From: a virus
Taxonomy: Duplodnaviria > Heunggongvirae > Uroviricota > Caudoviricetes
Length of the DNA stretch: 64,000 nucleotides
Virus record (IMG/VR): IMGVR_UViG_3300047552_001889
Location: 64,001-128,000 of that record
Direction: 5' to 3' (one strand)
A model generated the notes under the pieces. It did not search any database, was not told where the DNA came from, and saw only the letters and a program-made list of their open reading frames with translations. Both the position numbers and the translations under genes were made by a program. Below are positions 764 to 63,343 of this stretch, in pieces. The number at the start of each line of letters is the position of its first letter. Position 1 is the stretch's first letter.

Positions 764-792
764 TTATACGGATTTAAACAATAAATGTTACA
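764..792 (-). promoter_or_regulatory. ECF-type promoter TGTAAC-N16-CGTATAA
   Basis: Exact motif on - strand upstream of ATG 734. Confidence 0.8.
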
Positions 793-835
793 CTTGAACA
801 CTGCTCTAACAATTATTTTTTTAAAAATCACATTT

Positions 836-864
836 TGAAACATTTTATTATTAATTTCGTATAA
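836..864 (+). promoter_or_regulatory. ECF-type promoter TGAAAC-N16-CGTATAA
   Basis: Exact motif upstream of ATG 874. Confidence 0.8.
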
Positions 865-873
865 GAAACTGAT

Positions 874-1209
874 ATGACGGAAGAAACATTAAGAGACATA
901 CGTAGCAGGTATCCGAACATTACTGGTGAGGAACTTAAGGCGCTTAGCCCAGAGGAGTGGAATAAGTGTAGCATTGCTCTACTTGAAGGTATTTCTATTG
1001 ACTATAAGAACCAGCTTCAAGACCTGTTCAAGAACAGCAAGAAATTGATTGAAGATGGAGTTTCATTAGAGGATATTGATTGGCTTAAGGAATATCTTAG
1101 AGATTGCAAGAATAGTGTTGAATCTCAGCTAAAGGAGCGAGTATTGGAACAACAGTATCTTAGAGGTGGATTGAATTCACCATGGTGCTATAAACACAAG
1201 GAGGCGTAA
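874..1209 (+). CDS. hypothetical protein
   Basis: Packed ORF after promoter; no motif recognised. Confidence 0.8.
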   Translation: MTEETLRDIRSRYPNITGEELKALSPEEWNKCSIALLEGISIDYKNQLQDLFKNSKKLIEDGVSLEDIDWLKEYLRDCKNSVESQLKERVLEQQYLRGGLNSPWCYKHKEA

Positions 1210-2030
1210 TGAATTCACTAAAAAGTTTAATGCAGAACACATATTGGGTCGCAATCATAGTATTTGTGTCTCAACTGGTATTTATCTATCTCAGAACTCT
1301 GAATGTAATCTATACAACAGAGAAGAAAATCTGGATGTCAATTTTCACTGGAGTTGGAATTGGATTCTTAACTCTTATTTCCTTTGAAATTGGTATTGAC
1401 TCCCTTAAGAGTGGAGAGCCAGTTCCTATTATCCTATTCCTAGCTGGAGGTGCATTTGGAACGTGGTGGGGAATCAGACAAAATGCAAGAATGGAGGTTC
1501 CAGTTACAAAAGATGATGAGCAGTCCGAAAAGGTTCTAAGTGAGATTGACAAGATAAAGACTAATTATGATAAAATATTAGAAGAGCTTTATAGTGTCAA
1601 GAAAGAATTAGAGAATAAGGATAAGGAAATCAGTAGTAACATCCACTACAGAAAAGTAAATAGAAAGCTTGATGGATGGAAGAAGGAACATGAGTTTATT
1701 GAGTTCTACTCAAAGATTTATGTGCTAGATAATGGTGATAGAAAGAAGAATCCACCATACGTCTCAATGAGTTCTAGTGGAGTAATCGACAAGTATGATA
1801 AAACCATTGGTCCAGAATCAAAGCTTAGATGCTTCATGATTACAAAGCTTGTAATTCCTAACTATTTTAGCGAACAAGAATTGTCAGTTGCTGTATCAGC
1901 AGGTCCTGAAAGAAATAACTTTGAAAGTGTATTCGGTATGTCGTACAGAGAGATTATCGCTATTATGTACGAGCATAACTATCACAGAGTAAAGAATGAA
2001 ATGTACACACTCAATTTCTATGAAATATGA
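1209..2030 (+). CDS. membrane protein, N-terminal DUF5698/DUF2179-like domain plus soluble C-terminal domain
   Basis: About 3 hydrophobic segments, IYLRTLNV and GGAFGTWWG, then coiled coil. Confidence 0.55.
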   Translation: MNSLKSLMQNTYWVAIIVFVSQLVFIYLRTLNVIYTTEKKIWMSIFTGVGIGFLTLISFEIGIDSLKSGEPVPIILFLAGGAFGTWWGIRQNARMEVPVTKDDEQSEKVLSEIDKIKTNYDKILEELYSVKKELENKDKEISSNIHYRKVNRKLDGWKKEHEFIEFYSKIYVLDNGDRKKNPPYVSMSSSGVIDKYDKTIGPESKLRCFMITKLVIPNYFSEQELSVAVSAGPERNNFESVFGMSYREIIAIMYEHNYHRVKNEMYTLNFYEI

Positions 2031-2446
2031 AAGAGGCTGAATTGAAGCATAGCTCTCCAGAGAACAAGCTAAAGCTATTCACAATGGGATTGAACCTTGA
2101 GGTTCAACCATACTGGCTCATCAAGCAAATGATTAGCTATAATAGCCAGAGTATGATTGATGAGCTAATTGAGAAGCAATATAGGGAGGCTCTTGATAGA
2201 TTCGCATTCTGGCAATCTAAAACAATTGAAAATATTAAGGAAGACGAGGATGGTGAAGTCATATTTGATAATATGAAGTATCATCAGCATGTTCAGGAAA
2301 TACAGGATGTAGCAGACATCTCAAGAGACCTACTGCCTTTACATTCTGATTATGAGTGTATTGAGCTTACAGATGAGCAAATGAATGCAAAAGAGTTAGC
2401 CTACAAATATTGGGGCTACAATAAGTTTTATGGATATAAAGATTGA
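2027..2446 (+). CDS. hypothetical protein
   Basis: ATGA overlap; no motif. Confidence 0.75.
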   Translation: MKEAELKHSSPENKLKLFTMGLNLEVQPYWLIKQMISYNSQSMIDELIEKQYREALDRFAFWQSKTIENIKEDEDGEVIFDNMKYHQHVQEIQDVADISRDLLPLHSDYECIELTDEQMNAKELAYKYWGYNKFYGYKD

Positions 2447-2631
2447 GTGATATGCAATTTAAAGTTGGTGATAAAGTTGTTAAAAAATCTGGAAAACCAT
2501 TTAAGAATGGTGAAAAAAATCAAACAATATTTTCTTTGGGCAAAAATGAACAGCACCCAAATAATAAAGATTGTGCTGTTTTTTCAGATGGCTCTGTTTG
2601 TAATTTACAAATGTTAAAATTAGAAGAGTAA
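2443..2631 (+). CDS. hypothetical protein
   Basis: Overlapping small ORF, FKVGDKVVK start. Confidence 0.7.
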   Translation: MSDMQFKVGDKVVKKSGKPFKNGEKNQTIFSLGKNEQHPNNKDCAVFSDGSVCNLQMLKLEE

Positions 2632-2882
2632 TGGGAGTATTACCTTGTCACAGAATTGATTGTGATTCAATTATGTGTAATACATATGTTCATTCAGTTG
2701 GATATGTGTGTCAAAGTTGTCAAAATGAATTCAAGGATTATCTTGAGTCAAATCGCATAGATACACCAACCGAAGGAGAAATTGAGAGAGAGTTGATTAA
2801 GTTTATGGCAACATCTAAGAATAGATTTTCAGTTGGTGATGAAATGACTGTTGAACAATTTTTTGAAAAACATACAAGATGA
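2631..2882 (+). CDS. hypothetical Cys-rich protein
   Basis: CxxxxC...C...CxxC pattern. Confidence 0.7.
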   Translation: MGVLPCHRIDCDSIMCNTYVHSVGYVCQSCQNEFKDYLESNRIDTPTEGEIERELIKFMATSKNRFSVGDEMTVEQFFEKHTR

Positions 2883-3715: not shown

Positions 3716-3736
3716 TCTTAAAAAACAATTGAATAA

Positions 3737-5155
3737 ATGGAAAATATAAAATCAATACTTGACGAGATTTCTGCAGAACCAGGAACCAATGCTAAGATGT
3801 CAATCCTTAATAAGTACTCAGATAATGAGCTACTTAAAACAACGCTATACTTGGCTATGTCCAAGAGAGTTAAATTCTACATTAAGCAAATTCCAGATTT
3901 CCAGTACATTGGAGATGACAATGGTCTTGAGTGGGCTATTGAACAACTTCATAGGCTATCCTCAAGAGAGTTTACTGGAACAGCTGCCGTCAATCATCTG
4001 CAATACATTCTTGGTGGAGTAAATCCAAGTGACCAATATGTCGTGAAAAGAATTATCGAGAAGGACCTCAAAATTGGAATTGGAAGAACAAATGTTAACA
4101 AGGTAATCGAGAGTCTTGTTGAGAAAACTCCATACATGGGTGCTAAGTCCTATGATAAGAAGCTTGTCGAGGCTGTCATTAAGAAAGGTAAGGCTCTTAG
4201 TCAAATAAAGATGGATGGTAGATATGCGAATGCAATCATTCGAGATGGTGATGTTGAGCTTGAGAGTAGAGCTGGCGAGCCAAATGGACTCAAGGATGCT
4301 CTATTCCTTAAGGAGTTATCCCAGCTGGGTGATGAAATCGTTTTGAATGGTGAGCTTACGGTTATCGGAGTCCCAGTTAGAAGAACTGCAAACGGAATTG
4401 TTTCTTCCCTTGTTGACATTCAACTTAAGGAAGAGGAACGTGGTCCAGTTGAGACTCAAAAGAAGATTGATGAATTCTTGAAGAAGCACAGAGCTGACTT
4501 CGGAAAGGATGACCTCACATTTCAAGAGGCTCTTGATTCAGTTGTTTACACCTGCTGGGATATGATTAAAGTGGAGGAGTACTATGAGAAAAAATCAAAG
4601 AGACCATACGAAACTAGATTTGAAGAGCTTAACGCTTTAATTAGCGAGAAAAATCCAACAAGAATCGAAATCGTTGAAACCAGAGAGGTTACAACTGTGA
4701 AGGAAGCTATGCAACACTTTACAGAAGCAATTGAGAGAGAACTTGAGGGTACAATTCTTAAGGACTCGAAAGGTGAGTGGAAAGATGGAAAACCTAACTG
4801 GCAAGTTAAGATGAAGCTTGACATGAATGTTGACCTTAGGATTATTGGATTTGAGATGGGAACTCCTGGAACTAAGAATGAAAACTGGGTCTCTACTCTA
4901 AATTTAGAATCGTCATGTGGTCTTCTTAAGACTAACCCTTCAAACATGGATGAAAATATGATGCAGTATGTAACCGACAACCAGGATAAGCTAATGGGTG
5001 CAATCGTTGAGGTAAACTGTAAGGGTCTTTCTCAGAATAAGTTTGGAGATTGGTCACTAATGCACCCATCTGTCGTTGAGATTCGAGAAGATAAAGATAC
5101 TTGCGATTCGCTTGAGTCAGCTAAGGCAATTGAAGAATCTGTAAAGAGTTTATAA
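3737..5155 (+). CDS. lig: ATP-dependent DNA ligase
   Basis: Motif I KMDG, VLNGEL, EGTILK, W-K-K motif, C-terminal OB fold with HP...REDK. Confidence 0.95.
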   Translation: MENIKSILDEISAEPGTNAKMSILNKYSDNELLKTTLYLAMSKRVKFYIKQIPDFQYIGDDNGLEWAIEQLHRLSSREFTGTAAVNHLQYILGGVNPSDQYVVKRIIEKDLKIGIGRTNVNKVIESLVEKTPYMGAKSYDKKLVEAVIKKGKALSQIKMDGRYANAIIRDGDVELESRAGEPNGLKDALFLKELSQLGDEIVLNGELTVIGVPVRRTANGIVSSLVDIQLKEEERGPVETQKKIDEFLKKHRADFGKDDLTFQEALDSVVYTCWDMIKVEEYYEKKSKRPYETRFEELNALISEKNPTRIEIVETREVTTVKEAMQHFTEAIERELEGTILKDSKGEWKDGKPNWQVKMKLDMNVDLRIIGFEMGTPGTKNENWVSTLNLESSCGLLKTNPSNMDENMMQYVTDNQDKLMGAIVEVNCKGLSQNKFGDWSLMHPSVVEIREDKDTCDSLESAKAIEESVKSL

Positions 5156-12990: not shown

Positions 12991-13310
12991 TAGTTATTGC
13001 ACCGAGGTTCTTGAACTTCATATCTTGGCTTTTCGGTATAAAAATGAAAATAGGAGGACTTGCAATCCTCCCATTTGTTTTTGTGCCAGATGAAGAGTGC
13101 AAGAATAATATGTATCTTGTTAATCATGAGCGTATTCACCTCAGACAGCAGGTTGAGCTAATATTTATTGGATTTGTCACCATCTACTTTATAGAGTTAT
13201 ATAGGAAGGGTTACATGGGAATTAGCTTCGAAAAAGAAGCCTATATGAATCAGCACAATCTAAACTACTTGAAGGAGAGAAAATGGTTCTCCTGGAGAAA
13301 ATATTTGTAA
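12987..13310 (+). CDS. membrane-associated HExxH (zincin-like) protein
   Basis: NHERIHLRQQ and ISFEKEAY motifs with hydrophobic segments. Confidence 0.7.
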   Translation: MIVIAPRFLNFISWLFGIKMKIGGLAILPFVFVPDEECKNNMYLVNHERIHLRQQVELIFIGFVTIYFIELYRKGYMGISFEKEAYMNQHNLNYLKERKWFSWRKYL

Positions 13311-13334
13311 CATTTTTTTATATAAATCGTATAA
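13306..13334 (+). promoter_or_regulatory. ECF-type promoter TGTAAC-N16-CGTATAA
   Basis: Exact motif; -35 contains upstream TAA stop. Confidence 0.8.
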
Positions 13335-14447: not shown

Positions 14448-14803
14448 CAAGAATTAACGCTGGAATACCCCCAAAGGAGCTTGTTGATAAGCATTTAATG
14501 GCTGAGCATAGAGAAATAAAAAGAGTGCCAAACTGCATTGCAAAAGGAAAGTATAATCTATCTGGAATGCCAAGTAAGTTCACTCTAGGAACTGGTCATG
14601 TTAAGTTTTTCTATGATAAGCTTATGTATTTAAAGAATAGATACGAAGAGCTTTACGCTGAGTGTAAGAGGCGAGGCTTCAACGTAACCTACTACGGTGA
14701 TGCCTGGAATGGAGTTCCACCTGAGCTCATGAATGACTACATCCCGACTGACGAGGATAGAGAAATTATCAGAGAGCGAATAAGAGAAAGACTATCAAGT
14801 TGA
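14444..14803 (+). CDS. denV: pyrimidine dimer DNA glycosylase / endonuclease V
   Basis: MTRIN start, HLMAEHREI, FTLGTGHVKFFYDKL. Confidence 0.95.
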   Translation: MTRINAGIPPKELVDKHLMAEHREIKRVPNCIAKGKYNLSGMPSKFTLGTGHVKFFYDKLMYLKNRYEELYAECKRRGFNVTYYGDAWNGVPPELMNDYIPTDEDREIIRERIRERLSS

Positions 14804-14829
14804 AACATTTTGGTTTAACTTACGTATAA
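14801..14829 (+). promoter_or_regulatory. ECF-type promoter TGAAAC-N16-CGTATAA
   Basis: Exact motif; TGA is the denV stop. Confidence 0.8.
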
Positions 14830-14835: not shown

Positions 14836-15429
14836 ATGATAAAAGACGAGATTAAAAAGCTTAAGGAAAATGCAAAGATGCTTGAAGATAAGTATAATAA
14901 ACTTGTCAATTCAATCAAAGAAGCGTTTTATGAGCGAGAAGACTATTGGGATGAAAATTCCAAAGTTAAGCCAAAAACGGAGAGTGCTATCATGTCTGCA
15001 GCATATTGTCTTGCTATGATGAATGCTCCTAAATCTAAGTACTCATTTGATAGAGGTTTTAACATTCACAGAGGCGAGGTATTCAGGTCTGAGCCAAAAA
15101 TTCTTCTTGATTTCTTCTACATTTACGATAAGACATTTGAAAATCGTTTCGGAACCACGCCATCTGTGCTTTTAGTAAGAAAAAAGAACATTAAGGTTCT
15201 TACTGAAACTTGTCTTAAGGCTTGGAAACATGCGGTTAATAAAAGTTTCAGCGATTCAACAATCCTTGGATTTAAGGAGTGGCTTGATGCTACAAGTTGT
15301 GATGAAATTGTATCTATTCTTCACGAGGTTCTTGAGGATAGAATAGATGAGGTTAATGATAAGAAATTATACATCAAAGATGTTATTATCATTTACCCAA
15401 GCAATCCAATAAAAAACTATCATTTCTAA
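14836..15429 (+). CDS. hypothetical protein
   Basis: Packed ORF. Confidence 0.8.
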   Translation: MIKDEIKKLKENAKMLEDKYNKLVNSIKEAFYEREDYWDENSKVKPKTESAIMSAAYCLAMMNAPKSKYSFDRGFNIHRGEVFRSEPKILLDFFYIYDKTFENRFGTTPSVLLVRKKNIKVLTETCLKAWKHAVNKSFSDSTILGFKEWLDATSCDEIVSILHEVLEDRIDEVNDKKLYIKDVIIIYPSNPIKNYHF

Positions 15430-20153: not shown

Positions 20154-20987
20154 ATGAGTAATAAAATAATTTCAGAAGAAAAAAGCTTTAAGGAATTTCT
20201 TAAAGTAATTTATCCTATACATGGTGTGTTTGGATATGATGGATATATCGAAAATGGACAATTCGTTGAGTATGGTCGAAAGTTCTTGATGTTTGATGAA
20301 AATTTAAAAGTCATATTTGAGAATGAACCTTACAACAGTGGTGGAAACTATCACAAGAATGTTGAAAAGAAGCTTAAGGAGATGAAAGTTGGTGAAGACC
20401 CAGGCTTTAACAATCTACCTCTTAGCCTAACTCATGAAAGGTTTAGAACGGATAATTGTGTAGATGATATGATTTTGCATTTACTTACTCATCACTTTAT
20501 TAATTGGTCTCCATGGTCAAGCCTTAAAGGTGAAGTGCCTGAAGATTATGATATAGAACCTAGTTCTCCAGAATGGGAAAACTTAAATAGAATTAGGTCT
20601 TTTTACTCTATGAAGAGAAACTTACTAAGCGAGAAATGTAAGGATAATTCTCTGGATGAAAAATCTATAGATTATAATTTATTTACCGAAAAGGGGAAAA
20701 AAACAATTGATGATGCTGTTGAGTGGTTCAAGACAAATGAGTCTCGAACACCCCTTCAAGATGCTTGGATGGCTGTGCTGAGAAAAGATGGAATCAACAT
20801 TGATTGGGAACCAAATACTTTTGCTCAAGATGATGAGCTTATAATGAAAAACATTAACTACGAGACAGAAGACGAAATTAAAGAAAGGCGCAAAATAGAG
20901 CATGAAGAATTTAAAAAATCATTGACACCAGAACAAAAAAGTTTCCTTAGGAAAGCGGCTGAAAATCTTAGTAAAAAGAAGAAATGA
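20154..20987 (+). CDS. hypothetical protein
   Basis: Long packed ORF. Confidence 0.8.
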   Translation: MSNKIISEEKSFKEFLKVIYPIHGVFGYDGYIENGQFVEYGRKFLMFDENLKVIFENEPYNSGGNYHKNVEKKLKEMKVGEDPGFNNLPLSLTHERFRTDNCVDDMILHLLTHHFINWSPWSSLKGEVPEDYDIEPSSPEWENLNRIRSFYSMKRNLLSEKCKDNSLDEKSIDYNLFTEKGKKTIDDAVEWFKTNESRTPLQDAWMAVLRKDGINIDWEPNTFAQDDELIMKNINYETEDEIKERRKIEHEEFKKSLTPEQKSFLRKAAENLSKKKK

Positions 20988-22006
20988 AACGAGAATATCT
21001 TAAGACACACAACTACAAAATACTCAAGACCTATACAGTAGAAGAAATAAAGGCTCATGGAGATGCTGAGTTCTTCTACGATAAGGAAGTTACGGACAAA
21101 AGAATTAAACTCAGGAGAGCGCATATTTTGAATGAAATAGGCCATAATTGCTCCGAGGAAGGATGCAACATTTCTGGATTCCACTATGCTCTTGGAGAAG
21201 ATAAGGGCGGTGGTCTTCACCTGGACCTATATGCCTATGATAAGGAAGGTGACCTGGTTATGATTACCATTGACCATATTAAGCCAAAGTCTAAGGGTGG
21301 TTCAGATGATATAGAAAATCTAAGACCTCACTGCAAGCCTCATAATGAAATGAAGGCGAATGACTACAACTTCAATAGAGAATTTAAAAATCTTCTGGAG
21401 ATATATCCAAAGGAACCGATGTTCTCGAAGAACTATGAAATCAGAAGAGAGGTGTTATCTCAGCAAGAGTTGGATATTTTTTCAAATATGGGTGGATTCC
21501 TTGCAAATAAGTACGCAAGCCACTTTGAAGTTGGTAAGGAGTATGTTCAGCTGATTAAGAGAGATAGTGGAACAATGATGTCGGACCACCCATCTGAAAC
21601 CATGTCAAACCAGGAATTCATCAACAAAGCTTATGGAGATGTGATGATATTTGGACTTGGACTTGGTATGATTATTTTTCCACTTCTTGACGATGATGTA
21701 AAGAGCATAACAGTTGTTGAGCAAGACCTTGGGGTTATTGATATGGTTGGTCCAATCATCAAGAAATACGATACAAAGAACAAGGTGACAATAATTAATG
21801 GTGACGCATTCAAGTACCACGAAGTAATGCCTAACTCTCAAAGGTTTGATACCATCTATTTTGACATCTGGATAAGAATTGATGACGATGCATTCAATCA
21901 AATGGAGGAACTTCATAACTTATACAGAAAGTTCTTGAGGTCAAACATTTGCATCATTGACTCTTGGTGCTATAGCATGAAACAAGATTATCTGGAGAGT
22001 ATTTGA
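20984..22006 (+). CDS. HNH nuclease domain fused to class I SAM-dependent methyltransferase-like (spermidine synthase-like) domain
   Basis: TIDHIKPKSKGGSDDIENLRPHCKPHN; VMIFGLGLG, VVEQD, GDAF, FDTIYFDIW. Confidence 0.75.
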   Translation: MKREYLKTHNYKILKTYTVEEIKAHGDAEFFYDKEVTDKRIKLRRAHILNEIGHNCSEEGCNISGFHYALGEDKGGGLHLDLYAYDKEGDLVMITIDHIKPKSKGGSDDIENLRPHCKPHNEMKANDYNFNREFKNLLEIYPKEPMFSKNYEIRREVLSQQELDIFSNMGGFLANKYASHFEVGKEYVQLIKRDSGTMMSDHPSETMSNQEFINKAYGDVMIFGLGLGMIIFPLLDDDVKSITVVEQDLGVIDMVGPIIKKYDTKNKVTIINGDAFKYHEVMPNSQRFDTIYFDIWIRIDDDAFNQMEELHNLYRKFLRSNICIIDSWCYSMKQDYLESI

Positions 22007-22032
22007 AACATTTTTCATTTTGTTTCGTAAAA
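22004..22032 (+). promoter_or_regulatory. ECF-type promoter variant TGAAAC-N16-CGTAAAA
   Basis: One mismatch; TGA is upstream stop. Confidence 0.7.
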
Positions 22033-22039: not shown

Positions 22040-22162
22040 ATGAAAAATTTTTTTAAAGCTGTAATCCTAATTTCAAACTTCATCCTATGCATGATAGTTG
22101 GAGCAGCATCAATTATTGTGATAGCACCTATTTCTGTTTACGAAGTCATAAATAGCAAGTAA
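22040..22162 (+). CDS. small single-TM peptide (40 aa)
   Basis: Own translation MKNFFKAVILISNFILCMIVGAASIIVIAPISVYEVINSK, directly after promoter. Confidence 0.6.
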   Translation: MKNFFKAVILISNFILCMIVGAASIIVIAPISVYEVINSK

Positions 22163-26714: not shown

Positions 26715-26743
26715 TGAAACATAATCAAAAAATTAACGTATAA
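26715..26743 (+). promoter_or_regulatory. ECF-type promoter TGAAAC-N16-CGTATAA
   Basis: Exact motif. Confidence 0.8.
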
Positions 26744-27418: not shown

Positions 27419-27447
27419 TGTAACATTTTTCTATTACATCCGTATAA
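27419..27447 (+). promoter_or_regulatory. ECF-type promoter TGTAAC-N16-CGTATAA
   Basis: Exact motif; precedes non-coding structured segment. Confidence 0.8.
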
Positions 27448-32885: not shown

Positions 32886-32914
32886 TGAAACTTTTTTAAT
32901 TTTTAAACGTATAA
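32886..32914 (+). promoter_or_regulatory. ECF-type promoter TGAAAC-N16-CGTATAA
   Basis: Exact motif upstream of ATG 32920. Confidence 0.8.
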
Positions 32915-35188: not shown

Positions 35189-35217
35189 TGTAACATTATC
35201 ATTTTATTCTCGTATAA
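35189..35217 (+). promoter_or_regulatory. ECF-type promoter TGTAAC-N16-CGTATAA
   Basis: Exact motif. Confidence 0.8.
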
Positions 35218-35678: not shown

Positions 35679-35707
35679 TGTAACATTAATCTTTTGTTTA
35701 CGTATAA
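35679..35707 (+). promoter_or_regulatory. ECF-type promoter TGTAAC-N16-CGTATAA
   Basis: Exact motif upstream of ATG 35714. Confidence 0.8.
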
Positions 35708-40704: not shown

Positions 40705-40733
40705 TGAAACTTTCAGCAAATTTTTGCGTATAA
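40705..40733 (+). promoter_or_regulatory. ECF-type promoter TGAAAC-N16-CGTATAA
   Basis: Exact motif. Confidence 0.8.
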
Positions 40734-41440: not shown

Positions 41441-41469
41441 TGTAACATTTTTAAAATTTTATCGTAGAA
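41441..41469 (+). promoter_or_regulatory. ECF-type promoter variant TGTAAC-N16-CGTAGAA
   Basis: One mismatch; upstream of ATG 41476. Confidence 0.7.
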
Positions 41470-41475: not shown

Positions 41476-41958
41476 ATGGAACACCTATCACATAGAACCA
41501 AAGAATTTGTATTAACTCTTTATAAAGCACCAAAGAAGTGCTTGGAGGACCTTGATGTCTTTAAATCACTTCTTGAGTCTCTAAGAGAAACTGCATCTAA
41601 GAAAACTCACTATCACAATCTGAATGAGTGGAGTGATAAGGTTTATGATTTTGTTCACAATAAGCTAAGCGAGAACGGATTCAAGAATGGAGACCCAGAG
41701 GCCAATGACAAAAACCCAGGAGCAAGATTCTGGTGGCATGTGTATGGCATTGTTGGTGGTATTCACTACTCCAAACATCTTAAGACAGATGTTGCAAATC
41801 ATCACTCAAGTGCATACGAGAGAAACGAGGCTCTTATTGCTGAGATTGAGGATGTTCTAAGTTATGCACCTTCTCAGTTTGAGCTAGGATTTTGTGAAAC
41901 ATGCCTACAGATGACCAATCATCTTGATGGGGTTTGTCAAAAATGCAAAAAACAATAA
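41476..41958 (+). CDS. hypothetical protein with C-terminal Zn ribbon
   Basis: CETC...CQKC. Confidence 0.75.
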   Translation: MEHLSHRTKEFVLTLYKAPKKCLEDLDVFKSLLESLRETASKKTHYHNLNEWSDKVYDFVHNKLSENGFKNGDPEANDKNPGARFWWHVYGIVGGIHYSKHLKTDVANHHSSAYERNEALIAEIEDVLSYAPSQFELGFCETCLQMTNHLDGVCQKCKKQ

Positions 41959-42718: not shown

Positions 42719-42799
42719 ATGCATAAACAGGAAGAAATAATCAGCAAATTAGGAATCGAGGAGGAGATTGTTTGTATCTATCCATCTAGTCTCCAGTAA
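42719..42799 (+). pseudogene. truncated 5' remnant of a nucleotidyltransferase allele
   Basis: MHKQEEIISKLGIEEEIVCIYP aligns to MKHTAEHIIKELGIDEEIIAIYK (43817); similarity ends near 42785 at the endonuclease 3' end. Confidence 0.75.
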
Positions 42800-43740
42800 A
42801 AACCTTTATATTTACTGTTGTTTTTTATAGCTCTTGTGATGGGTCCAGTATTATTATAACCAAGTGAAACTTTTATTTCTTTAACATCATTCCAGATTTT
42901 TAAACAATCTCCGTTAGAATCTATTTGCTTGATATTTGTGTATTTATTTGTTTTGGGAATCCAGTCGCCAACTTCTTGTATTTTATTAATAACCTCTGAA
43001 TTAGATAAATATTCATAACTAAAATAAAAACCTTTAGATTGTTTACAGCTTCCAGAAAGAACAAATCGTATAGACACAGGCTCAATATTTAATTCAGAAG
43101 CACAGCCTCTAATACTATCCCATTCTTTTATTAGATTGCCTTTTAAGTCATATTGATATACAGTTTTTTTAGTATAATCAGAAACAGACCGTCCATTTAT
43201 ATTATTTTCTTTAAATATTTTAGTTATTACACCTCTGCTGATGTTTAATTCTTTACTTATCTCTCTAGTAGTTTTATTAAGTCTATAAAGCTGTATAACA
43301 TTTGATGCCAAAGAATCTCTTAATTTTTTATACTTATCAATTATTTTTTTCTTTTGTTTTTCTGATTGTTTAAATCCAAGATTGCTATCAGCAATCGGCC
43401 TACCATTATATCCTTTGTTAAATGAATCAAAATAATTAATATAATATTGTTCTTTCAATATGCACTCTTCTGGCATACACTCCTCAACAATTTCAAATGA
43501 TAACTTATCTTTCCCATATTTATTAAAAGCGTTTTGTAATGCTGGAGAATGGTGTTTATTATTTTTTAGCAAATAAATATGTTTCCTCCATCTATTATAA
43601 AATCCATTGCCACTTTTTATTTTTGAAGAGTTTGAAGATGCACTTCCAACATATACTTTTTTAGAGCCATCAAATCCTATTTTGTAAATCCCTGTTGTTG
43701 ATGGAAATATTGTAAATTCGTTTATTCTATATCTTTTCAT
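42778..43740 (-). mobile_element. free-standing GIY-YIG homing endonuclease with NUMOD1-like repeats
   Basis: TGIYKI...VYVGS...RW..H...L; VYQYDLKGNLIKEWDSI repeats; only complete - strand gene, very AT-rich. Confidence 0.9.
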
Positions 43741-46115: not shown

Positions 46116-46142
46116 AAAGGAGTCGATTAGACTCCTTTTTTT
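46116..46142 (+). terminator. intrinsic terminator
   Basis: AAAGGAGTC-gatta-GACTCCTTT + T run. Confidence 0.8.
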
Positions 46143-46170
46143 GTAACATACCTATATATTTTGCGTATAA
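46142..46170 (+). promoter_or_regulatory. ECF-type promoter TGTAAC-N16-CGTATAA
   Basis: Exact motif abutting terminator. Confidence 0.8.
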
Positions 46171-46190: not shown

Positions 46191-46985
46191 ATGAAAACAC
46201 AAAGTGAAGTTGATTGTCAGAAACTGTTTGCAGAGAAATATGGAATTGACTCTATGGGCTTTTCTGAATTGTGGGACCTTCACTTCAAACATGAAGTTAA
46301 TAGACCTTTTGAAGATGAGTTGCGCAAAGTAATTAACAAACTATTACCAAATGAGAATCAACAAGAAGTATATGGCATTTTGTTGAATTACTATGAGGAC
46401 GCTAAAAGACGAAGACGCTTCTATCAAAGAGGAAATCCACATGGCTATGGTTACGAAGTAATTGACCGAAACGAAGGTAAGCCAATTCTTAAGCTTCATA
46501 CATACGATAGTCAAAAAGCTAAAGATTATTGGGAAGCGCTAAGAGCTGATGAAAACGCAGTTGTTCCAGACACTTCTGAAGAAACTCCTCCAAGAAGAGC
46601 ATTGGTAATTAATGGAAAACATGGTTCATGTTATTTTAGTGTTGACACTCAAGAGGAATTTATAAAAAAATCTGTTGATTTCATTAGGGAAAATTTTTCT
46701 GATGTTTATCGTCCCTCTGAAAAAAAGGATAAAGATTACCTAGGCTTAACCAATGAAGAGATAAAATCATTACCAGAAGGAAAAGTCAAAGAGGCAGCTC
46801 TTGAAGAACTTAGAAAATTTAAAGAAAGAAATAAGTATGACTTGCTTCACAAAGAATCATGCGAGCTCTTGGACGAAATAAAGTCTAAGGGTTACAATAG
46901 TAAAATTTCAGATATTATTGACGTTCTTAATTTCTATCAAGGTGATAGATATGAAGGTAATTGGGATATTGTAGACTTGAGGTAG
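46191..46985 (+). CDS. hypothetical protein
   Basis: Long ORF after promoter. Confidence 0.8.
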   Translation: MKTQSEVDCQKLFAEKYGIDSMGFSELWDLHFKHEVNRPFEDELRKVINKLLPNENQQEVYGILLNYYEDAKRRRRFYQRGNPHGYGYEVIDRNEGKPILKLHTYDSQKAKDYWEALRADENAVVPDTSEETPPRRALVINGKHGSCYFSVDTQEEFIKKSVDFIRENFSDVYRPSEKKDKDYLGLTNEEIKSLPEGKVKEAALEELRKFKERNKYDLLHKESCELLDEIKSKGYNSKISDIIDVLNFYQGDRYEGNWDIVDLR

Positions 46986-49835: not shown

Positions 49836-50075
49836 ATGTTTTGTAAATTTAAAAAAGAAGATATTAATCTTAAAATAATAAAAAACCCCTTAATGATTGG
49901 CCCAAATAAGTGGTGGTATGTTATAGAAGATGAAAATGGATATATCATTGACAAGCAATGTACGTCCAGGCAGTATTTTAAGATTTACAAGCATAAGACT
50001 GGAGATAATTCCTTAAAATTTGATGAATTTTTAGCAAAAGCTAAGTCTGGAGAAATAGATTTGAAACAAATATAG
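49836..50075 (+). CDS. hypothetical protein
   Basis: Packed ORF. Confidence 0.7.
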   Translation: MFCKFKKEDINLKIIKNPLMIGPNKWWYVIEDENGYIIDKQCTSRQYFKIYKHKTGDNSLKFDEFLAKAKSGEIDLKQI

Positions 50076-50090
50076 TTTTTCATCGTATAA
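50062..50090 (+). promoter_or_regulatory. ECF-type promoter TGAAAC-N16-CGTATAA
   Basis: Exact motif. Confidence 0.8.
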
Positions 50091-50112: not shown

Positions 50113-50544
50113 ATGGATACATATTTAATTCAAAGAGGTAAGTTTAACGACAGAGACTTTAAGAAGGGGATTGACTCAATAGTCCAATTTGATTACATGG
50201 GAAGCACTGAATATGAATCGGATGCGCTTCCTGGCTCTCTTGATAGAATCAGAAAAGATATTTCATTCTACACATACATTGATGTTCCAATTCAAGGAAA
50301 GGTTATAACAGTATTCTGCAAGGATTCTCAGAAGACAGAGGTTAAGTTATATCTTGAGAAGATTGCCGCTGGAGAAATGCGAACTAAGGAGTGGCATGCA
50401 TTCGATGATTTCATCAAGGGTGATGAATTTTTCTCTAGTAGAGTTAATCATTGGTGGGATATTGAGAATGACCTCATGTTCTGGGAAAAGAATGTTGATT
50501 TTGAAACTAAGTTTAAGTCTATAATCGAGAAAAAGCCTGAGTAA
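50113..50544 (+). CDS. hypothetical protein
   Basis: YLIQRG...FDYMGS.E.E motif. Confidence 0.8.
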   Translation: MDTYLIQRGKFNDRDFKKGIDSIVQFDYMGSTEYESDALPGSLDRIRKDISFYTYIDVPIQGKVITVFCKDSQKTEVKLYLEKIAAGEMRTKEWHAFDDFIKGDEFFSSRVNHWWDIENDLMFWEKNVDFETKFKSIIEKKPE

Positions 50545-52829: not shown

Positions 52830-52863
52830 AAAACCAGGTGCCCTCAAAAAACCACCTGGTTTT
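52830..52863 (+). terminator. intrinsic terminator-like hairpin
   Basis: AAAACCAGGTG-12nt-CACCTGGTTTT. Confidence 0.7.
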
Positions 52864-52891
52864 GTAACATAAACTATTTTGTAACGTATAA
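52863..52891 (+). promoter_or_regulatory. ECF-type promoter TGTAAC-N16-CGTATAA
   Basis: Exact motif abutting terminator. Confidence 0.8.
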
Positions 52892-52917: not shown

Positions 52918-53820
52918 ATGAGAGTTATAGACAAGGGATATGATAAACTTCTATGGTCGAATTTTGAACTATGTTCTTCGACCTTTCTGGAATTAAAGAC
53001 TCTTGCCAAGAGTTGGTATGGAGACCTTGACCTTAGCAAGTTTGATGACAGATACCTTTATAATGCTGAGAGAGAAAAGAATGAACTTATTACAATGAAG
53101 CAATCTGGTCTAACCAGCAACTACTTTTTCGCATACCGTGACCAAGATGGTAAATATTACCTTATGGACGGATTCAATCGCTTATTTACCGATTACGGAG
53201 ACCTTGGAGACATTGACTTTCCAGTTTACATCAAAGTAATTACTGATGAACTTGAGGACTGGAGATTAATGCACATTATGTTCCGATTGAATATGTGGAA
53301 GCTACAAGGAAGAAGTCAGAATTCATTCAAACCAGATGATTTCTTCGACAGAGGATTCAGACTTTTTATGTTCACAAAGTTTGGTGTTGATATTTGGTCA
53401 AATGCCAACGACAGACATGGTAAATTTAACTTTGAAGAGCGACCAAGAGAACAGGATGACTTCCATGCAATCCATAAGTATTTTAGAAATGAGTACGAGA
53501 GTTGTGCAGATTTCCCTTATAAACTTGGTGAAATGAGCGTTCTATTTAGCAGAGAAAAGATTGTTGATGACCTTAGACAAATCACTAAAATAAACGAATA
53601 CAAAGGGCAATTTAAAAACTTTAGATTCTTCATTGATGGATTCTATATGTTTTTGTCTGGAAGACGTGTTAGAGGTGATATGGGTGACTACAAGTTTGAT
53701 GACTTTTTGAAGATGCTTGAGGATGATGAAAAATTCTTTAAGAAGCTTCAAGGAATGTCTGGTACCGATGTGACTAGACAAAATGTATATAAGTGGTACC
53801 AATCCACTCTGCAAAAGTAA
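52918..53820 (+). CDS. ParB/DUF262-like (DGxxR) protein
   Basis: YYLMDGFNRL then MFRLN resembles DGQQR...F.RLN; start moved to ATG 52918. Confidence 0.5.
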   Translation: MRVIDKGYDKLLWSNFELCSSTFLELKTLAKSWYGDLDLSKFDDRYLYNAEREKNELITMKQSGLTSNYFFAYRDQDGKYYLMDGFNRLFTDYGDLGDIDFPVYIKVITDELEDWRLMHIMFRLNMWKLQGRSQNSFKPDDFFDRGFRLFMFTKFGVDIWSNANDRHGKFNFEERPREQDDFHAIHKYFRNEYESCADFPYKLGEMSVLFSREKIVDDLRQITKINEYKGQFKNFRFFIDGFYMFLSGRRVRGDMGDYKFDDFLKMLEDDEKFFKKLQGMSGTDVTRQNVYKWYQSTLQK

Positions 53821-53834: not shown

Positions 53835-53863
53835 TGTAACATTTTTATATAGTTTACGTATAA
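53835..53863 (+). promoter_or_regulatory. ECF-type promoter TGTAAC-N16-CGTATAA
   Basis: Exact motif preceding GC-rich non-coding segment. Confidence 0.8.
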
Positions 53864-53868: not shown

Positions 53869-53993
53869 CTCAAGCAGGTGTTAAGGCGCTCCAGGTGTGT
53901 CAAGACTGCATCCCGAAAGGGTATACAAACCTTGGTCCGATGCTGGAATTATACGTGGCAAGGTGAGAGCAATCCTCATGCTTGCCTTTTTTT
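53869..53993 (+). ncRNA. candidate structured ncRNA or attenuator leader (about 120 nt)
   Basis: GC-rich; TCCAG/CTGGA stem, CCC-GAAA-GGG hairpin, terminal GGCAAG-GTGAG-agcaatc-CTCAT-g-CTTGCC + T7; 5' CAAGCA can pair with TGCTTG. Confidence 0.6.
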
Positions 53994-54023
53994 ATTGAGA
54001 ACAAACAACAATCAACAATAGAG

Positions 54024-54197
54024 ATGATAACAGTTTTTTACGCAGCAGCATGTATATTCTTTTCTTATGTACTCGTGAAGTCTTCTGTAGAGCTATGGAG
54101 AGTTGAGGGCAACTTGCTTGATAAATTATATCTAGTGATTTCTTCTGGTACAGCTCTTGCATTTTCATTCTTTGCACTATTTGAAACATTGTTTTAG
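54024..54197 (+). CDS. small two-TM protein (57 aa)
   Basis: Start moved to ATG 54024. Confidence 0.55.
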   Translation: MITVFYAAACIFFSYVLVKSSVELWRVEGNLLDKLYLVISSGTALAFSFFALFETLF

Positions 54198-54210
54198 AAT
54201 TTTCGTATAA
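54182..54210 (+). promoter_or_regulatory. ECF-type promoter TGAAAC-N16-CGTATAA
   Basis: Exact motif upstream of ATG 54230. Confidence 0.8.
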
Positions 54211-54229: not shown

Positions 54230-55066
54230 ATGAATAAGAAGGAAAAAATGATTGAGGAGTTTCTTGCTGAGCCAATTAAGGCTGGGGATGTCGTTACTGT
54301 AAGAGGTCTTGGCACTCAAGATAAGAAAGCATTTGCAAATTCTACCAAAGTTATTGAAGTTCATGATGATGAGTCAATTACCATCAACGAGTATCACTAT
54401 CCATCTCCTAAAAGAATTCAAAAAGGAGACTATAGAAAAAATACAGACAGAATTGGGGCAGACCCATTCCCAGAAAAGTCATGGTATGCTAGTCTTAGAA
54501 TGATTATGTTTGACCTATACTCAATAACCCATGCTTGTGGAATGCAAAAGCTAGATAAGGAGTATGACTTTGGAACGAAGAACACCTACATAGTCAATGA
54601 ACTGAACTGGAATCCATTCTTCATTGACAAGGATGGAAATGAAATTGTATATCAGAGAGAATTATGTTGGACCACAAAGCAGAAGCAGCTTCTTATCGAG
54701 TCCATCTATAACGACATTGAAATAGGTAAGATTGTCATAAGAAGACGCTCATATGACTGGGTTAAGAATAGATGCTTAAGTGGTAAGGAGGCATTCTTTA
54801 AGGACATCGTTGACGGAAAGCAAAGACTTAACGCAATCTTGGGATTCATCAACGGAGAGTTCAAGGACCTTCATGGAAACAAGTGGAATGACCTATCTGA
54901 CCATGCTCAGCATAAGTTCTTCAAATTTTCATCTGTTGGATATGGTGAGATTGGTGAGAATGCAACTGATGAAGATGTTAAGTCAGTATTTCTTAACATT
55001 AACTTTGCTGGAGTTAAAATGTCTAAGGAACACATAGACTTCGTAAAGTCAATTCAAATCAAGTAA
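54230..55066 (+). CDS. DUF262 (GmrSD N-terminal/ParB-like) domain protein
   Basis: YQRELCW...QKQLLIESI...IG.IV, IVDGKQRLNAI, FLNIN.AG. Confidence 0.85.
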   Translation: MNKKEKMIEEFLAEPIKAGDVVTVRGLGTQDKKAFANSTKVIEVHDDESITINEYHYPSPKRIQKGDYRKNTDRIGADPFPEKSWYASLRMIMFDLYSITHACGMQKLDKEYDFGTKNTYIVNELNWNPFFIDKDGNEIVYQRELCWTTKQKQLLIESIYNDIEIGKIVIRRRSYDWVKNRCLSGKEAFFKDIVDGKQRLNAILGFINGEFKDLHGNKWNDLSDHAQHKFFKFSSVGYGEIGENATDEDVKSVFLNINFAGVKMSKEHIDFVKSIQIK

Positions 55067-59357: not shown

Positions 59358-59573
59358 ATGACAAGAGAAACTATTTCAGGACTTATTATACTGGCAGCTG
59401 TATTTTTTGTTGGCTATGTAATGATTCAAGTGAACACAGAAGATAAGTATGTCATGAGAGATGGTTGTGTATATCATAAGACAACTGAGTTATCTGGAGA
59501 TGATTTCGAAACAAACTATACTCTGGTTACATGTGACTCAACAAAGTTCCACAAGTACACCATTGAAAAGTGA
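59358..59573 (+). CDS. membrane-anchored small protein
   Basis: N-terminal TM, two Cys. Confidence 0.7.
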   Translation: MTRETISGLIILAAVFFVGYVMIQVNTEDKYVMRDGCVYHKTTELSGDDFETNYTLVTCDSTKFHKYTIEK

Positions 59574-59599
59574 AACAATTTTGATTTTAATACGTATAA
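59571..59599 (+). promoter_or_regulatory. ECF-type promoter TGAAAC-N16-CGTATAA
   Basis: Exact motif; TGA is upstream stop. Confidence 0.8.
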
Positions 59600-59619: not shown

Positions 59620-60072
59620 ATGATTAGTACTTTTGATAAAATACCAGCAACAATAGAGGAACTTATTGAAATTAAGGAAAAAAACTATCTTTCTGCAAGT
59701 GAAGTTATTGTTAGACTCTATGAGCTTAAGAGAGAAGCTAGTCAAAAAGTAGAAATTCCACCATACAAGAGTAAGCCAAAATCTCCTGATAAGATGTCAA
59801 CATCAAAAGAAATCAGAGAATACGCTAATGAACTTGAGGAATGGGAAAAGTATGACAAGGAAAGAAACAAGGCCATCAAGAAATCTGAAAGAGCTGGTTC
59901 TAATGTTCCAGAACTTCTTGAGGATTTCATCAAGATTGAATCAGGCCTTACGACAAAGGTTCCAGAGAAGTATAGAGATAAGGTCTATAGTTATGCCTGG
60001 GAAAGGGGTCACTCTTGTGGATATTCAGAGGTATATATTCACCTTTGTGACCTTGTAAACATTTTTCAATAA
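59620..60072 (+). CDS. hypothetical protein
   Basis: AWERGHS.GY.EV motif. Confidence 0.8.
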   Translation: MISTFDKIPATIEELIEIKEKNYLSASEVIVRLYELKREASQKVEIPPYKSKPKSPDKMSTSKEIREYANELEEWEKYDKERNKAIKKSERAGSNVPELLEDFIKIESGLTTKVPEKYRDKVYSYAWERGHSCGYSEVYIHLCDLVNIFQ

Positions 60073-60735: not shown

Positions 60736-60742
60736 GTGCTAG

Positions 60743-61063: not shown

Positions 61064-61073
61064 ATTTTAACGA

Positions 61074-61397: not shown

Positions 61398-61399
61398 TT

Positions 61400-61723
61400 A
61401 TGGTAGTTTTTATGGTATTGCTTGTGCTTCTATTGATTTTTGCACCAGAGTTATTGATAGCATTATTTTTACTAATTGGACTCGCTGTATTTGGAATTCT
61501 TGAGTTCATACTCAGGCTATTTGGAAAGTCATTTGATGACATCGAGCCAACTGAAGCGCAAATTAAAGAAGCGTATATTAATTATGCTGATAGTCATTGG
61601 ACACGACCAGGAAAGTTTGATGGTACTGGTTCGTGGTCTGTTAAACCAATGCAACATAGTTATGAGTCATTTGCTCGTGAGTGCAGAGAGAATCCAGAAT
61701 TTTACAAAAAATACAAGAAATGA
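61400..61723 (+). CDS. membrane-anchored protein
   Basis: Long hydrophobic N-terminus. Confidence 0.7.
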   Translation: MVVFMVLLVLLLIFAPELLIALFLLIGLAVFGILEFILRLFGKSFDDIEPTEAQIKEAYINYADSHWTRPGKFDGTGSWSVKPMQHSYESFARECRENPEFYKKYKK

Positions 61724-62094
61724 AAAGCCCATATGAAATTGAACGGGGGATAGCAGAGGCTAAGATAAAGAAGTCAAATCGTATTTTCTTTATCGTGCTG
61801 ATAGCTATTATTTTATTTATGGCCTTATTTCCATATCCAATTAAGTGGTTGATGTTGGGTGTTGTAATTTTTTTAATTTACTTATACGGATTAGACGAAT
61901 CAAGCTCAAGAGATATTAGAGGTGAAATCGAATTCTCCAGGAGTCTCGGAGAGGAATGTATTGATTGTGGTCATGATTTTTATTCAGACTGCGAGACAAA
62001 AGAAGAAAAGCTTAATGTTCCTATATTTCCTGGAAACTATAGGAGATGTAAGGAATGTGAAGCAAAATACGGAGTTTATAAGCCAAAATTATGA
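61720..62094 (+). CDS. membrane protein with Zn ribbon
   Basis: Start moved to ATG 61720; CIDC...CKEC. Confidence 0.7.
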   Translation: MKSPYEIERGIAEAKIKKSNRIFFIVLIAIILFMALFPYPIKWLMLGVVIFLIYLYGLDESSSRDIRGEIEFSRSLGEECIDCGHDFYSDCETKEEKLNVPIFPGNYRRCKECEAKYGVYKPKL

Positions 62095-63068
62095 AGCCAA
62101 TTTTTAAGAATACTGATTTATTCCAAAATGTTGATTGGGATACTGAAATCCAAACAGACGAAGAATTGGATGATGAAAGCCACGCAAGAAACGCTAGTGA
62201 CTATGCGTTGGTAATGCACCTTATTAAGGATAGTATTGACAAAATGGTTGATAGTGAGGGTGCAGATAAGATAGAAGAGCATAAGAAAGGTAATTCAATG
62301 AGAATGCTTGAATTCATGTATGCTAAGTTCATGTATCATCATGCGATGTTCTATAGAAAAAAAGACTTTCTTAATCTTAAGTTTGAGGATAATAAGCACT
62401 ACAGAAATCCAATCATAGAGTCAAGAGAAAAGCTTGGAGAAACAAAGTATGAGTCAAATTTACCACTTGAGATTCTTCAAGAAACTGCTGATGCTCTAAT
62501 AGCCAGCATAAGAAAAAGATTGGATGACTCTAAGCCAAAAGATGGCGGATTTGAAGAAGCTAAGGCTATGTTTGAGAAGGAGGGAATCGAGGTTCAAAAG
62601 CCAGTTGGAATCGGCAAGGAAAGTGATAGAGATACTGTATGCACACTTTATGACGGAATACCATATCATATGTACCTCATGAAGTCTAGCAGCCATAGAG
62701 GGAAAAGAGAGCAAGCTGAAGTTAAAAAGGAGGTTGAGGAATTTAGAGAGCTTGTCGATAAGTATCACCCACTCATTAAGAGGGTGTTCATCGCTCTAAA
62801 AAAGCAGTTCGATGGTCTTGATGACCTTTGGGTTCTTTCTGGAGGTGGTATGCAGCTGCAAGCATTCTTTGGAAGCAATGGAAAGTATATTTGCATTCTA
62901 TATCTCGGCTTGAAGGGTGAAAAACCACGTCAAGACAAGAGTTGTAATTTAATTTTTCAGTGTTTCGAAGACGAAGAAAAGTGGCAGACTTACAAGCGCT
63001 TCAATCTTGAAGACCTTAATTTCAGCGCATTTGACAAGACAAATCCATTTAAAGATGATAAATTTTAA
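62091..63068 (+). CDS. hypothetical protein
   Basis: Long packed ORF. Confidence 0.85.
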   Translation: MKPIFKNTDLFQNVDWDTEIQTDEELDDESHARNASDYALVMHLIKDSIDKMVDSEGADKIEEHKKGNSMRMLEFMYAKFMYHHAMFYRKKDFLNLKFEDNKHYRNPIIESREKLGETKYESNLPLEILQETADALIASIRKRLDDSKPKDGGFEEAKAMFEKEGIEVQKPVGIGKESDRDTVCTLYDGIPYHMYLMKSSSHRGKREQAEVKKEVEEFRELVDKYHPLIKRVFIALKKQFDGLDDLWVLSGGGMQLQAFFGSNGKYICILYLGLKGEKPRQDKSCNLIFQCFEDEEKWQTYKRFNLEDLNFSAFDKTNPFKDDKF

Positions 63069-63070
63069 TT

Positions 63071-63295
63071 ATGAAAGTACTAGGTAAGTCTTGGATTCCA
63101 ACCAGCGGAGGTCTAATTGGAGTGGTTCTATGTGAGAATGATTATGGTCAGAAGGCCTTCATCCGTGTTGTTGAAGGCTCTGATGAGGAATCAGATATTC
63201 AGAAAGTTTGCGACTGGGGCTCAACGCTCCAGATTGAGCAAGCCAAGGGATTCTTTGGCTCTCTGGTTGATGATAGTAAGTACGGAAATTACTAG
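63071..63295 (+). CDS. hypothetical protein
   Basis: Packed ORF. Confidence 0.7.
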   Translation: MKVLGKSWIPTSGGLIGVVLCENDYGQKAFIRVVEGSDEESDIQKVCDWGSTLQIEQAKGFFGSLVDDSKYGNY

Positions 63296-63314
63296 AAGAA
63301 AAATGTTTCAAATT

Positions 63315-63343
63315 TGAAACATTTTTCGTTTTTATACGTATAA
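63315..63343 (+). promoter_or_regulatory. ECF-type promoter TGAAAC-N16-CGTATAA
   Basis: Exact motif. Confidence 0.8.

Follow-up and report, generated by a model that had tools for sequence, protein, structure and literature searches.

A probable ECF-class promoter array in an uncultured jumbo phage of Bacteroidota and the sigma factors that may read it

In Bacillus subtilis, sigma-W, a sigma factor with extracytoplasmic function (ECF), reads promoters of the form TGAAAC-N16-CGTA, in which a T-tract adjoins the -35 box; CGTA as against CGTC marks the -10 position that separates sigma-W from sigma-X and sigma-M (PMC5758882). In Flavobacterium psychrophilum, type IX secretion and Band-7 genes are served by the CGT-box ECF class SM6, which is induced when nutrients are low and reaches its peak activity in nutrient-poor freshwater conditions; SM4-6 jointly account for 7% of the start sites of this bacterium (PMC9723704). 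The promoter of its Band-7 gene, TTGTAAC-N16-CGTATAA, mapped by 5'-end RNA-seq, is classed as SM6/SigECF (Guerin et al. 2021, PMC9723704 Table S2), and the proximal start of rpoD lies behind TGTAAC-N17-CGTATAA, for which the table gives no motif class; transcription starts at the 6th base after the heptamer at Band-7 and yceA and at the 8th at rpoD (PMC9723704). Among phages, the sigma factor gp47 of Salmonella phage 7-11, related to gp36 of phiEco32, directs late promoters of the form GTAAtg-N16-aCTA (n = 8), as proven in vitro (PMC8948821). Among about 3,500 phage genomes surveyed, 14% carried sigma genes, with only two Bacteroidetes phages among the carriers. Here we describe repeated copies of TGWAAC-N16-CGTATAA, very probably ECF-class promoters, in a 64,000-nucleotide stretch (hereafter the window) corresponding to bases 64001-128000 of the 140,950-bp IMG/VR virus contig IMGVR_UViG_3300047552_001889 (C1; CheckV completeness about 63%). 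No paper on such a promoter array in phages of Bacteroidota was found in the literature.

An earlier note on this DNA had listed 17 exact and two one-mismatch copies of the motif, all with a 16-nt spacer and in sense orientation, and had set enrichment over shuffled sequence as a test. All of this was reproduced. The 17 exact sites, of which only that at 764 is on the minus strand and the other 16 are on the plus, were recovered with the same coordinates and strands, against 0.00 expected from dinucleotide-preserving shuffles. Allowing one mismatch added the sites at 22004 (CGTAAAA) and 41441 (CGTAGAA) and nothing else, giving 19 sites against 0.14 expected (Table 1). When the spacer of TGWAAC-Nx-CGTA was varied from 12 to 20 across the contig, x = 16 gave 29 occurrences and every other value zero to two. 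The whole-contig scan that the note had proposed, made with a weight matrix derived from the contig's own N16 sites, returned 33 sites scoring at least 17 (27 plus, 6 minus); no score fell between 10 and 17, and Markov-chain controls gave about zero sites. Within the window the scan yielded no site beyond the 19. All 33 sites combine AAC in the -35 box and CGT in the -10 box with a spacer of 16, in keeping with the rigid 16-17 bp spacer of ECF promoters. Conservation extends to bases that played no part in the selection: T precedes TG at 23 of 29 sites, AAC is followed by A (27/29) and T (25/29), a T-rich stretch adjoins the -35 box, and TAA follows CGTA at 27-29 of the 29.

The placement of the sites is equally regular. 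All 33 point at the next gene, and in 30 of them a start codon lies 6-42 nt downstream, the few exceptions being RNA units or long leaders; within the window, an ORF-opening ATG follows CGTATAA by 6-34 nt at 17 of the 19 sites (ORF, open reading frame). At least four sites, three in the window (Table 1) and one at contig position 62438, lie immediately 3' of a strong hairpin with a T-run, in what reads as a terminator-then-promoter layout. It is barely credible that the motif is instead a repressor or activator site, a packaging or replication signal, or a mobile-element repeat. Two sites without an ORF downstream could be cited for such a role, and nothing specific speaks in its favour. Against it stand the two boxes at an exact 16-bp distance with an AT-rich, variable spacer, the co-orientation at 6-42 nt before start codons, the position after terminators and the identity to a mapped promoter. 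Nor are the sites copies of a mobile repeat, since their spacers and flanks are not conserved.

The assignment to the ECF type rather than to the Bacteroidota housekeeping class, also proposed in the note, is supported. Housekeeping promoters are present as well, and are distinct from the motif. About 12 canonical Bacteroidota sigma-A promoters (TTTG-N19/20-TAnnTTTG) were found in the contig, 4-24 nt before start codons. They are interleaved with the ECF-type sites, so the window uses two promoter classes, and all 33 ECF-type sites lack the sigma-A boxes (-7 TAnnTTTG, with -33 TTTG about 19 bp upstream). Because of these sigma-A promoters, and because the nearest relatives of the contig's sigma genes are from Flavobacteriales, with 54-59% identity in the case of the RpoD-like protein, the phage host is placed in Bacteroidota, and within it probably in Flavobacteriales.

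The note had left it open whether the phage encodes its own ECF sigma elsewhere or uses one of the host; both proved to be real possibilities, given a sigma gene in the contig and an identical mapped host promoter. A search of the contig with sigma-70 region 2 and region 4 models revealed two sigma genes, one of them ECF-type, both outside the window (Table 1). P0001, 40 kb before the window, encodes an RpoD/RpoS-like protein of 301 aa with regions 1.2, 2, 3 and 4, which matches PF00140 and PF04539 and shares 54-59% identity with RpoD-like proteins of Flavobacteriales (two to three such paralogues were present in most of the 61 genomes searched). P0002, 34 kb before the window, encodes 207 aa with sigma-70 regions 2 and 4 only. 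In Pfam it matches PF04542 (E 3e-13), PF08281 (E 1e-15) and PF07638 Sigma70_ECF (25.3 bits, cut-off 21.1), and neither PF00140 nor PF04539. Its NCBIfam matches are to the GFO_1088 ECF family, Sig70_bacteroi1 and SigW (E 1e-21 to 5e-23, all below the equivalog cut-offs), and it scores 73 bits (cut-off 42.9) against the superfamily model TIGR02937. The nearest solved structure is B. subtilis SigW (PDB 5WUQ, E 3e-16), and every residue that is invariant among its 28 relatives is retained. By domains, size and similarity, the predicted P0002 protein is an ECF (group 4) factor of the sigma-70 family. Its gene is flanked upstream by an ORF for a 71-aa two-helix membrane protein without a Pfam family and downstream by an M23 peptidase gene; no anti-sigma family was detected beside it by Pfam, although divergent anti-sigmas may escape such detection. 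No further small sigma was found in the 141-kb contig.

Variants of the motif also precede both sigma genes. AGTAAC-N16-CGTATAA lies before the operon that ends in P0002, with a sigma-A type promoter between this variant and the first gene of the operon; this arrangement suggests autoregulation. TTAAAC-N16-CGTATAA lies 42 nt before P0001, with a second ECF-type site about 470 nt further up, an arrangement suggesting that the RpoD-like sigma follows the ECF sigma in a cascade.

From these elements we infer start sites, a reader and an order of events as follows. No RNA polymerase was found in the 141 kb (no match to the beta-subunit domain PF00562), and therefore the host core polymerase would transcribe from these sites; with an ECF-family sigma, it would start about 6 nt after CGTATAA. 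Host sigma-A polymerase would initially fire the sigma-A promoters of the phage, including the one before the P0002 operon. P0002, in the absence of a recognizable anti-sigma, would subsequently fire all TGWAAC-N16-CGTATAA promoters, the variant before its own operon providing positive feedback and that before the RpoD-like gene launching the cascade. Finally, about one-third of the units, with starts at the AUG itself or a single base ahead of it, would be translated as leaderless mRNAs.

We put at about an even chance that P0002 is the main reader of the sites. In its favour, its nearest solved relative, SigW, reads TGAAAC-N16-CGTA, the contig contains no GGCAAC-N16-CGT or other ECF-like motif family for it to read, and its cellular orthologs share the geometry nGnAAC-N16-CGT in their own boxes. 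The closest cellular homologues, from Crocinitomicaceae, Cryomorphaceae and other Bacteroidota, share 40-49% identity with P0002. At 62 of 80 loci of such orthologs, GGCAAC(C)-N16-CGTC/T stands directly before the sigma gene itself, by its position a classical autoregulatory ECF arrangement.

Viral contigs searched with the ECF sigma or its alignment gave one relative each time; relatives were therefore reached via the RpoD-like sigma and via the motif itself. L013, a syntenic groundwater phage contig, carries both sigma genes; its ECF sigma is 46% identical to P0002, and it has the same motif three to four times in 21 kb, one copy lying before its sigma operon. The ECF sigma of L013 (L013:10001-11086, plus strand; 361 aa in total) carries an HNH_3 domain of about 150 aa as an N-terminal fusion, and a second such fusion (P0097, 363 aa) was seen in the protein collection. 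A motif scan of IMG/VR counted 5-47 copies per contig in dozens of large phage contigs from the environment, and all motif-rich contigs of useful length encode one or more ECF-size sigmas. No sites above control were seen in relatives that have the RpoD-like sigma in common with this phage but no ECF sigma (G004 and G005, complete; G003, 81%). The closest large relative, G085, has the two sigmas in the same arrangement (RpoD-like 61%, family-A sigma 48% identical).

The ECF-size sigmas of these phages fall into at least four unrelated families that share at most 30% identity and differ in their helices of regions 2.4 and 4.2: A (this phage, L013, G085 and G100), B1 (G070, G071, G072 and G080), B2 (G071, G076, G080, G087 and G095) and B3 (G077 and G083/G085). 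Position 3 of the -35 box tracks the phage sigma family. Phages with B1 or B2 sigmas use TGTAAC only (TGAAAC at 0 of 43, 47, 18, 14 and 22 sites), and in those with family A or B3 TGAAAC predominates or is the sole form (15/26 here, 5/5, 4/4 and 8/13), a pattern that could also stem from different hosts. In the contig studied here, A-type and T-type sites show by eye no spatial or sequence separation, and a split between two readers within this phage is therefore not supported. In G080 (IMGVR_UViG_3300050014_000823), which has two small sigma genes, all six TGAAAC-type sites (C1:30974-42384 of that record) cluster in the 10 kb immediately downstream of one of them and the other 29 sites are TGTAAC-type, so that box position 3 may there separate two readers.

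These comparisons also supply most of the points that weigh against P0002. The motif is identical to the mapped host SM6/ECF promoter of the Band-7 gene, with a near copy before host rpoD, and its extended form is common to phages with unrelated sigma families A, B1, B2 and B3, which most simply implies one common reader, a host sigma. The GGCAAC...CGTC/T box of the cellular orthologs departs from the phage motif at a -35 flank and in base 4 of the -10 box, a base that discriminates between ECF sigmas in B. subtilis (PMC5758882), and the DNA-reading segments of P0002 are almost unchanged from those of the orthologs despite their different box. In addition, the complete phage G100 encodes a family-A sigma yet shows no AAC-N16-CGT promoter array of any form.

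Accordingly, a host ECF sigma of the SM6 class of Flavobacteriia (Band-7, type IX secretion, proximal rpoD) has to be considered; the phage would then copy a host promoter class, and P0002 would act elsewhere or only reinforce the host sigma. We regard this as possible though unlikely. Besides the points just listed, it draws on the genomes of prospective hosts. Boxes of the form [T/C]GTAAC-N16-CGT[T/A], in essence TGTAAC-N16-CGTT(A), lie 55-137 nt upstream of 10 of 30 Flavobacteriales rpoD-like genes sampled, and TGTAAC-N16-CGTTA precedes porP/sprF-like and gldJ/K-like genes in candidate host genomes. In three Flavobacteriales metagenome-assembled genomes (loci L400, L402 and L403 in G010, G006 and G007), the latter box stands 54-65 nt before orthologous porP/sprF-like genes, which by sequence extends the link between SM6 and type IX secretion beyond F. 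psychrophilum to other families. Yet the exact 13-base motif occurs only 6 times in about 210 Mb of 61 Flavobacteriales genomes, no more often than a reversed control, as against 26 times in 141 kb of phage DNA. It is absent from five candidate host genomes, in which neither TGTAAC-N16-CGTTA nor TGAAAC-N16-CGTWA showed genome-wide enrichment and GGCAAC-N16-CGTY was weakly enriched. The host class is thus real but small and degenerate, and the phage version is a sharpened consensus that recurs once per 5 kb. A conserved sigma of about 202 aa, the cellular relative of B1 in phages, gave no lead to the host SM6 sigma, no AAC-N16-CGT box being found upstream of it.

Several observations are harder to reconcile with a host sigma as reader. 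Motif-rich phages of useful length all encode an ECF-size sigma, and the motif is missing from complete relatives that have none. TGAAAC is present at 15 of 26 phage sites as against GTAAC in all 10 host rpoD-upstream boxes, and the choice of A or T follows the phage sigma family. Furthermore, ECF sigmas are normally scarce and restrained by anti-sigmas, and would therefore be a poor basis for at least 33 strong promoters.

A second phage ECF-like sigma, encoded in the missing 37% of the genome, could also read the sites. Candidates would be a B3-type sigma as in G085, or a B1-type sigma, whose recognition helix (GTVK...R.R) is closer to that of SigW. G085 has a B3 sigma about 100 kb away from the pair that it shares with this phage, and TGWAAC-N15/16-CGTTA boxes lie upstream of B1 and B3 sigma genes in other phages; since the contig is estimated to be 63% complete, such a gene could be unseen, which is one more point against P0002. 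We nevertheless consider a second sigma quite improbable, as it rests on absent sequence, with no such gene in 141 kb, and the family-A sigma operon itself has the motif, here and in L013.

A bolder form of the proposal for P0002, which we hold to be distinctly unlikely, is that the phage promoters are copies of a host starvation/envelope ECF class and that P0002 is an anti-sigma-free mimic of the host sigma. If this were true, a starved host with active SM6 sigma would fire the phage programme at once, and the phage sigma would in turn activate the SM6 regulon of the host, with rpoD and type IX secretion genes among its members. The cascade from ECF to RpoD-like sigma would follow, with unusually many leaderless mRNAs, and several unrelated lineages of jumbo phages would have converged on the same wiring with different sigma families.

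The prediction of leaderless mRNAs applies the start rule of the mapped F. psychrophilum promoters (6th base after the heptamer) to the phage sites. An ATG at offset 6-8 was found at 10 of 33 sites against about two expected (P = 2e-5), five of them in the window (14801, 22004, 32886, 35679 and 41441). Such units would have leaders of 0-2 nt, and therefore about 10 of the 33, judged from spacing only, would be leaderless. In F. psychrophilum, leaderless mRNAs make up only 5.5% (PMC9723704).

The note had further stated that all sites precede a start codon or a structured RNA; this holds for the 17 window sites with an ATG, and as regards RNA it is borne out by the fold at 27419 and weakly at 53835. 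Both of the latter sites are followed by about 115-125 nt that lack an ORF and are closed by a hairpin and U-tract. The unit behind 27419 ends in a 13-bp closing stem followed by U7, folds better than shuffled sequence (z -2.47) and contains two internal repeats that have GCACAATTACCC in common, which makes it a candidate phage small RNA. The unit behind 53835 likewise ends in a hairpin and U7, with an overall fold no better than shuffles (z -0.24), and is a candidate short RNA. Neither unit matches an Rfam family. The unit behind 53835 is followed by an unlisted ORF for a hydrophobic protein of 57 aa, and the promoter at 54182 lies inside the 3' end of this ORF.

About 90% of the ORFs of the contig are on one strand. 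Among its larger proteins are an ATP-dependent DNA ligase and an RNA ligase, an HNH/methyltransferase fusion and homing endonucleases, an RNase R-like nuclease, a phosphoesterase, ATPases and an ATP-dependent protease. The large ORFs scanned included neither a capsid nor a terminase gene, and the contig is therefore the non-structural arm of a jumbo phage. The genes behind the ECF-type sites are non-structural, a predicted content that fits an early or middle programme; the ATP-dependent DNA ligase gene (3737-5155) stands in a tight run of plus-strand genes headed by the promoter at 836. Neither tRNA genes nor Rfam families were found in the window, and megablast of 20 kb against a phage collection gave no match. 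Among other window genes, two adjacent paralogues on the plus strand (22794-24020 and 24020-25186; 408 and 388 aa) both match phrog_2475, of unknown function. A single plus-strand ORF (20984-22006) combines HNH endonuclease matches (residues about 40-150) with a methyltransferase match (residues 186-318), and a GIY-YIG/homing-endonuclease-like gene on the minority strand (42778-43740, minus), where the window has few genes, has no ECF-type promoter.

Table 1. Sites and associated features. Positions refer to the window unless preceded by C1 (contig); promoters are given by their -35 box and have CGTATAA as -10 heptamer unless stated; offset is the distance of the ATG in nt after the heptamer.
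Feature	Position	Strand	Remarks
Promoter, TGTAAC-N16-CGTATAA	764..792	-	diverges from 836; ATG 30 nt after heptamer
Gene behind 764 site	C1:63820-64734 (ends at window 734)	-	304 aa; weak P-loop/DnaB-like PHROG matches
Promoter, TGAAAC	836..864	+	offset 10; gene 874-1209
Promoter, TGTAAC	13306..13334	+	offset 33 (13367); 92-aa ORF
Promoter, TGAAAC	14801..14829	+	offset 7; gene 14836-15429; predicted leaderless
Promoter, one mismatch (CGTAAAA)	22004..22032	+	offset 8; 40-aa hydrophobic ORF 22040-22162; predicted leaderless
Promoter, TGAAAC	26715..26743	+	usable ATG at offset 33; 26776-27411, 211 aa, weak endolysin-like match
Promoter, TGTAAC	27419..27447	+	followed by non-coding unit of ~113 nt
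Candidate small RNA	~27453-27565	+	
Promoter, TGAAAC	32886..32914	+	offset 6; gene 32920-33306, phrog_3163; predicted leaderless
Promoter, TGTAAC	35189..35217	+	offset 27; gene 35244-35618
Promoter, TGTAAC	35679..35707	+	after terminator-like hairpin + T-run (-20.3 kcal/mol); offset 7; gene 35714-36184; predicted leaderless
Promoter, TGAAAC	40705..40733	+	offset 19; gene 40752-41438
Promoter, one mismatch (CGTAGAA)	41441..41469	+	offset 7; gene 41476-41958; predicted leaderless
Promoter, TGTAAC	46142..46170	+	after terminator-like hairpin (-15.7 kcal/mol); offset 21; gene 46191-46985
Promoter, TGAAAC	50062..50090	+	offset 23; gene 50113-50544
Promoter, TGTAAC	52863..52891	+	after terminator-like hairpin (-13.8 kcal/mol); offset 27; gene 52918-53820
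Promoter, TGTAAC	53835..53863	+	followed by ~125 nt without ORF; hairpin + U7 near 53995
Candidate short RNA	53869-53995	+	
Unlisted hydrophobic ORF	54024-54197		57 aa
Promoter, TGAAAC	54182..54210	+	offset 20; gene 54230-55066, phrog_1583
Promoter, TGAAAC	59571..59599	+	offset 21; gene 59620-60072
Promoter, TGAAAC	63315..63343	+	top weight-matrix score in contig; offset 34; gene 63377-63751, acetyltransferase-like
Sigma-A type promoters	9428, 22738, 44441, 47505, 57978	+	
P0001, RpoD/RpoS-like sigma gene	C1:22862-23767	-	
TTAAAC variant	C1:23837		before P0001
Second ECF-type site	C1:24267		upstream of P0001
AGTAAC variant	C1:28349		before operon ending in P0002
Sigma-A type promoter	C1:28443		between AGTAAC variant and first gene of operon
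P0002, ECF sigma gene	C1:29489-30112	+	

Phage transcription in Bacteroidota has hardly been studied, and the array provides a readable transcription map for an uncultured jumbo phage of this phylum, with 33 promoters and their likely starts, a sigma as candidate reader, a probable cascade of sigmas and two candidate small RNAs. As the promoter is common to dozens of contigs, a single experiment on one promoter-sigma pair would annotate many genomes. Whether the reader is a phage sigma or a host stress sigma bears on whether the success of infection depends on host physiology. Genetic tools for Bacteroidota are poor, and a compact, strictly spaced promoter together with a small sigma without anti-sigma could serve as an orthogonal expression part.

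Compared with B. subtilis sigma-W, the phage has an identical consensus, down to the T-rich stretch beside the -35 box and A as the 4th base of the -10 box. The two systems nevertheless belong to different phyla, the region 4.2 helix reads SKSNLSRAR in P0002 against VKTRIHRGR in SigW, and SigW is restrained by the anti-sigma RsiW and answers envelope stress, whereas no anti-sigma was found beside the phage gene. In F. psychrophilum SM6 (PMC9723704), the Band-7 promoter matches the phage motif exactly in its two boxes and their distance, and an ECF-type box lies close upstream of rpoD, as it does before the phage RpoD-like gene; the bacterial class, however, is small and degenerate, unlike the dense phage motif, and the phage employs TGAAAC as often as TGTAAC. 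The cellular orthologs of P0002 share nGnAAC-N16-CGT just before the sigma gene and nearly the same DNA-reading segments, but their boxes are GGCAAC(C) and CGTC/CGTT as against TTGWAAC and CGTATAA in the phage, and a co-transcribed gene for about 420 aa follows theirs, a partner that the phage gene lacks.

The closest phage parallels are phages 7-11 and phiEco32, which likewise combine a small phage sigma with the host core polymerase and a bipartite phage promoter with a 16-bp spacer; their transcripts start 6-9 bp after the element, and their early genes are served by the host primary sigma. Since phage sigmas with a promoter class of their own are known from these two, the earlier description of the phage's transcription logic as unusual was overstated, and the array is a clear but not unprecedented case of sigma-driven control of phage genes. 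Phages 7-11 and phiEco32 have 8 or 6 such promoters, for late or middle-and-late genes, and belong to a group of enterobacterial podoviruses of about 77 kb. The phage described here, a jumbo phage known from sequence alone, differs in having at least 33 promoters, in front of non-structural genes, in boxes that equal a host ECF class, and in a second, RpoD-like sigma placed downstream in the probable cascade. Of particular note are the apparent copying of a host promoter class, this cascade and the many units predicted to be leaderless.

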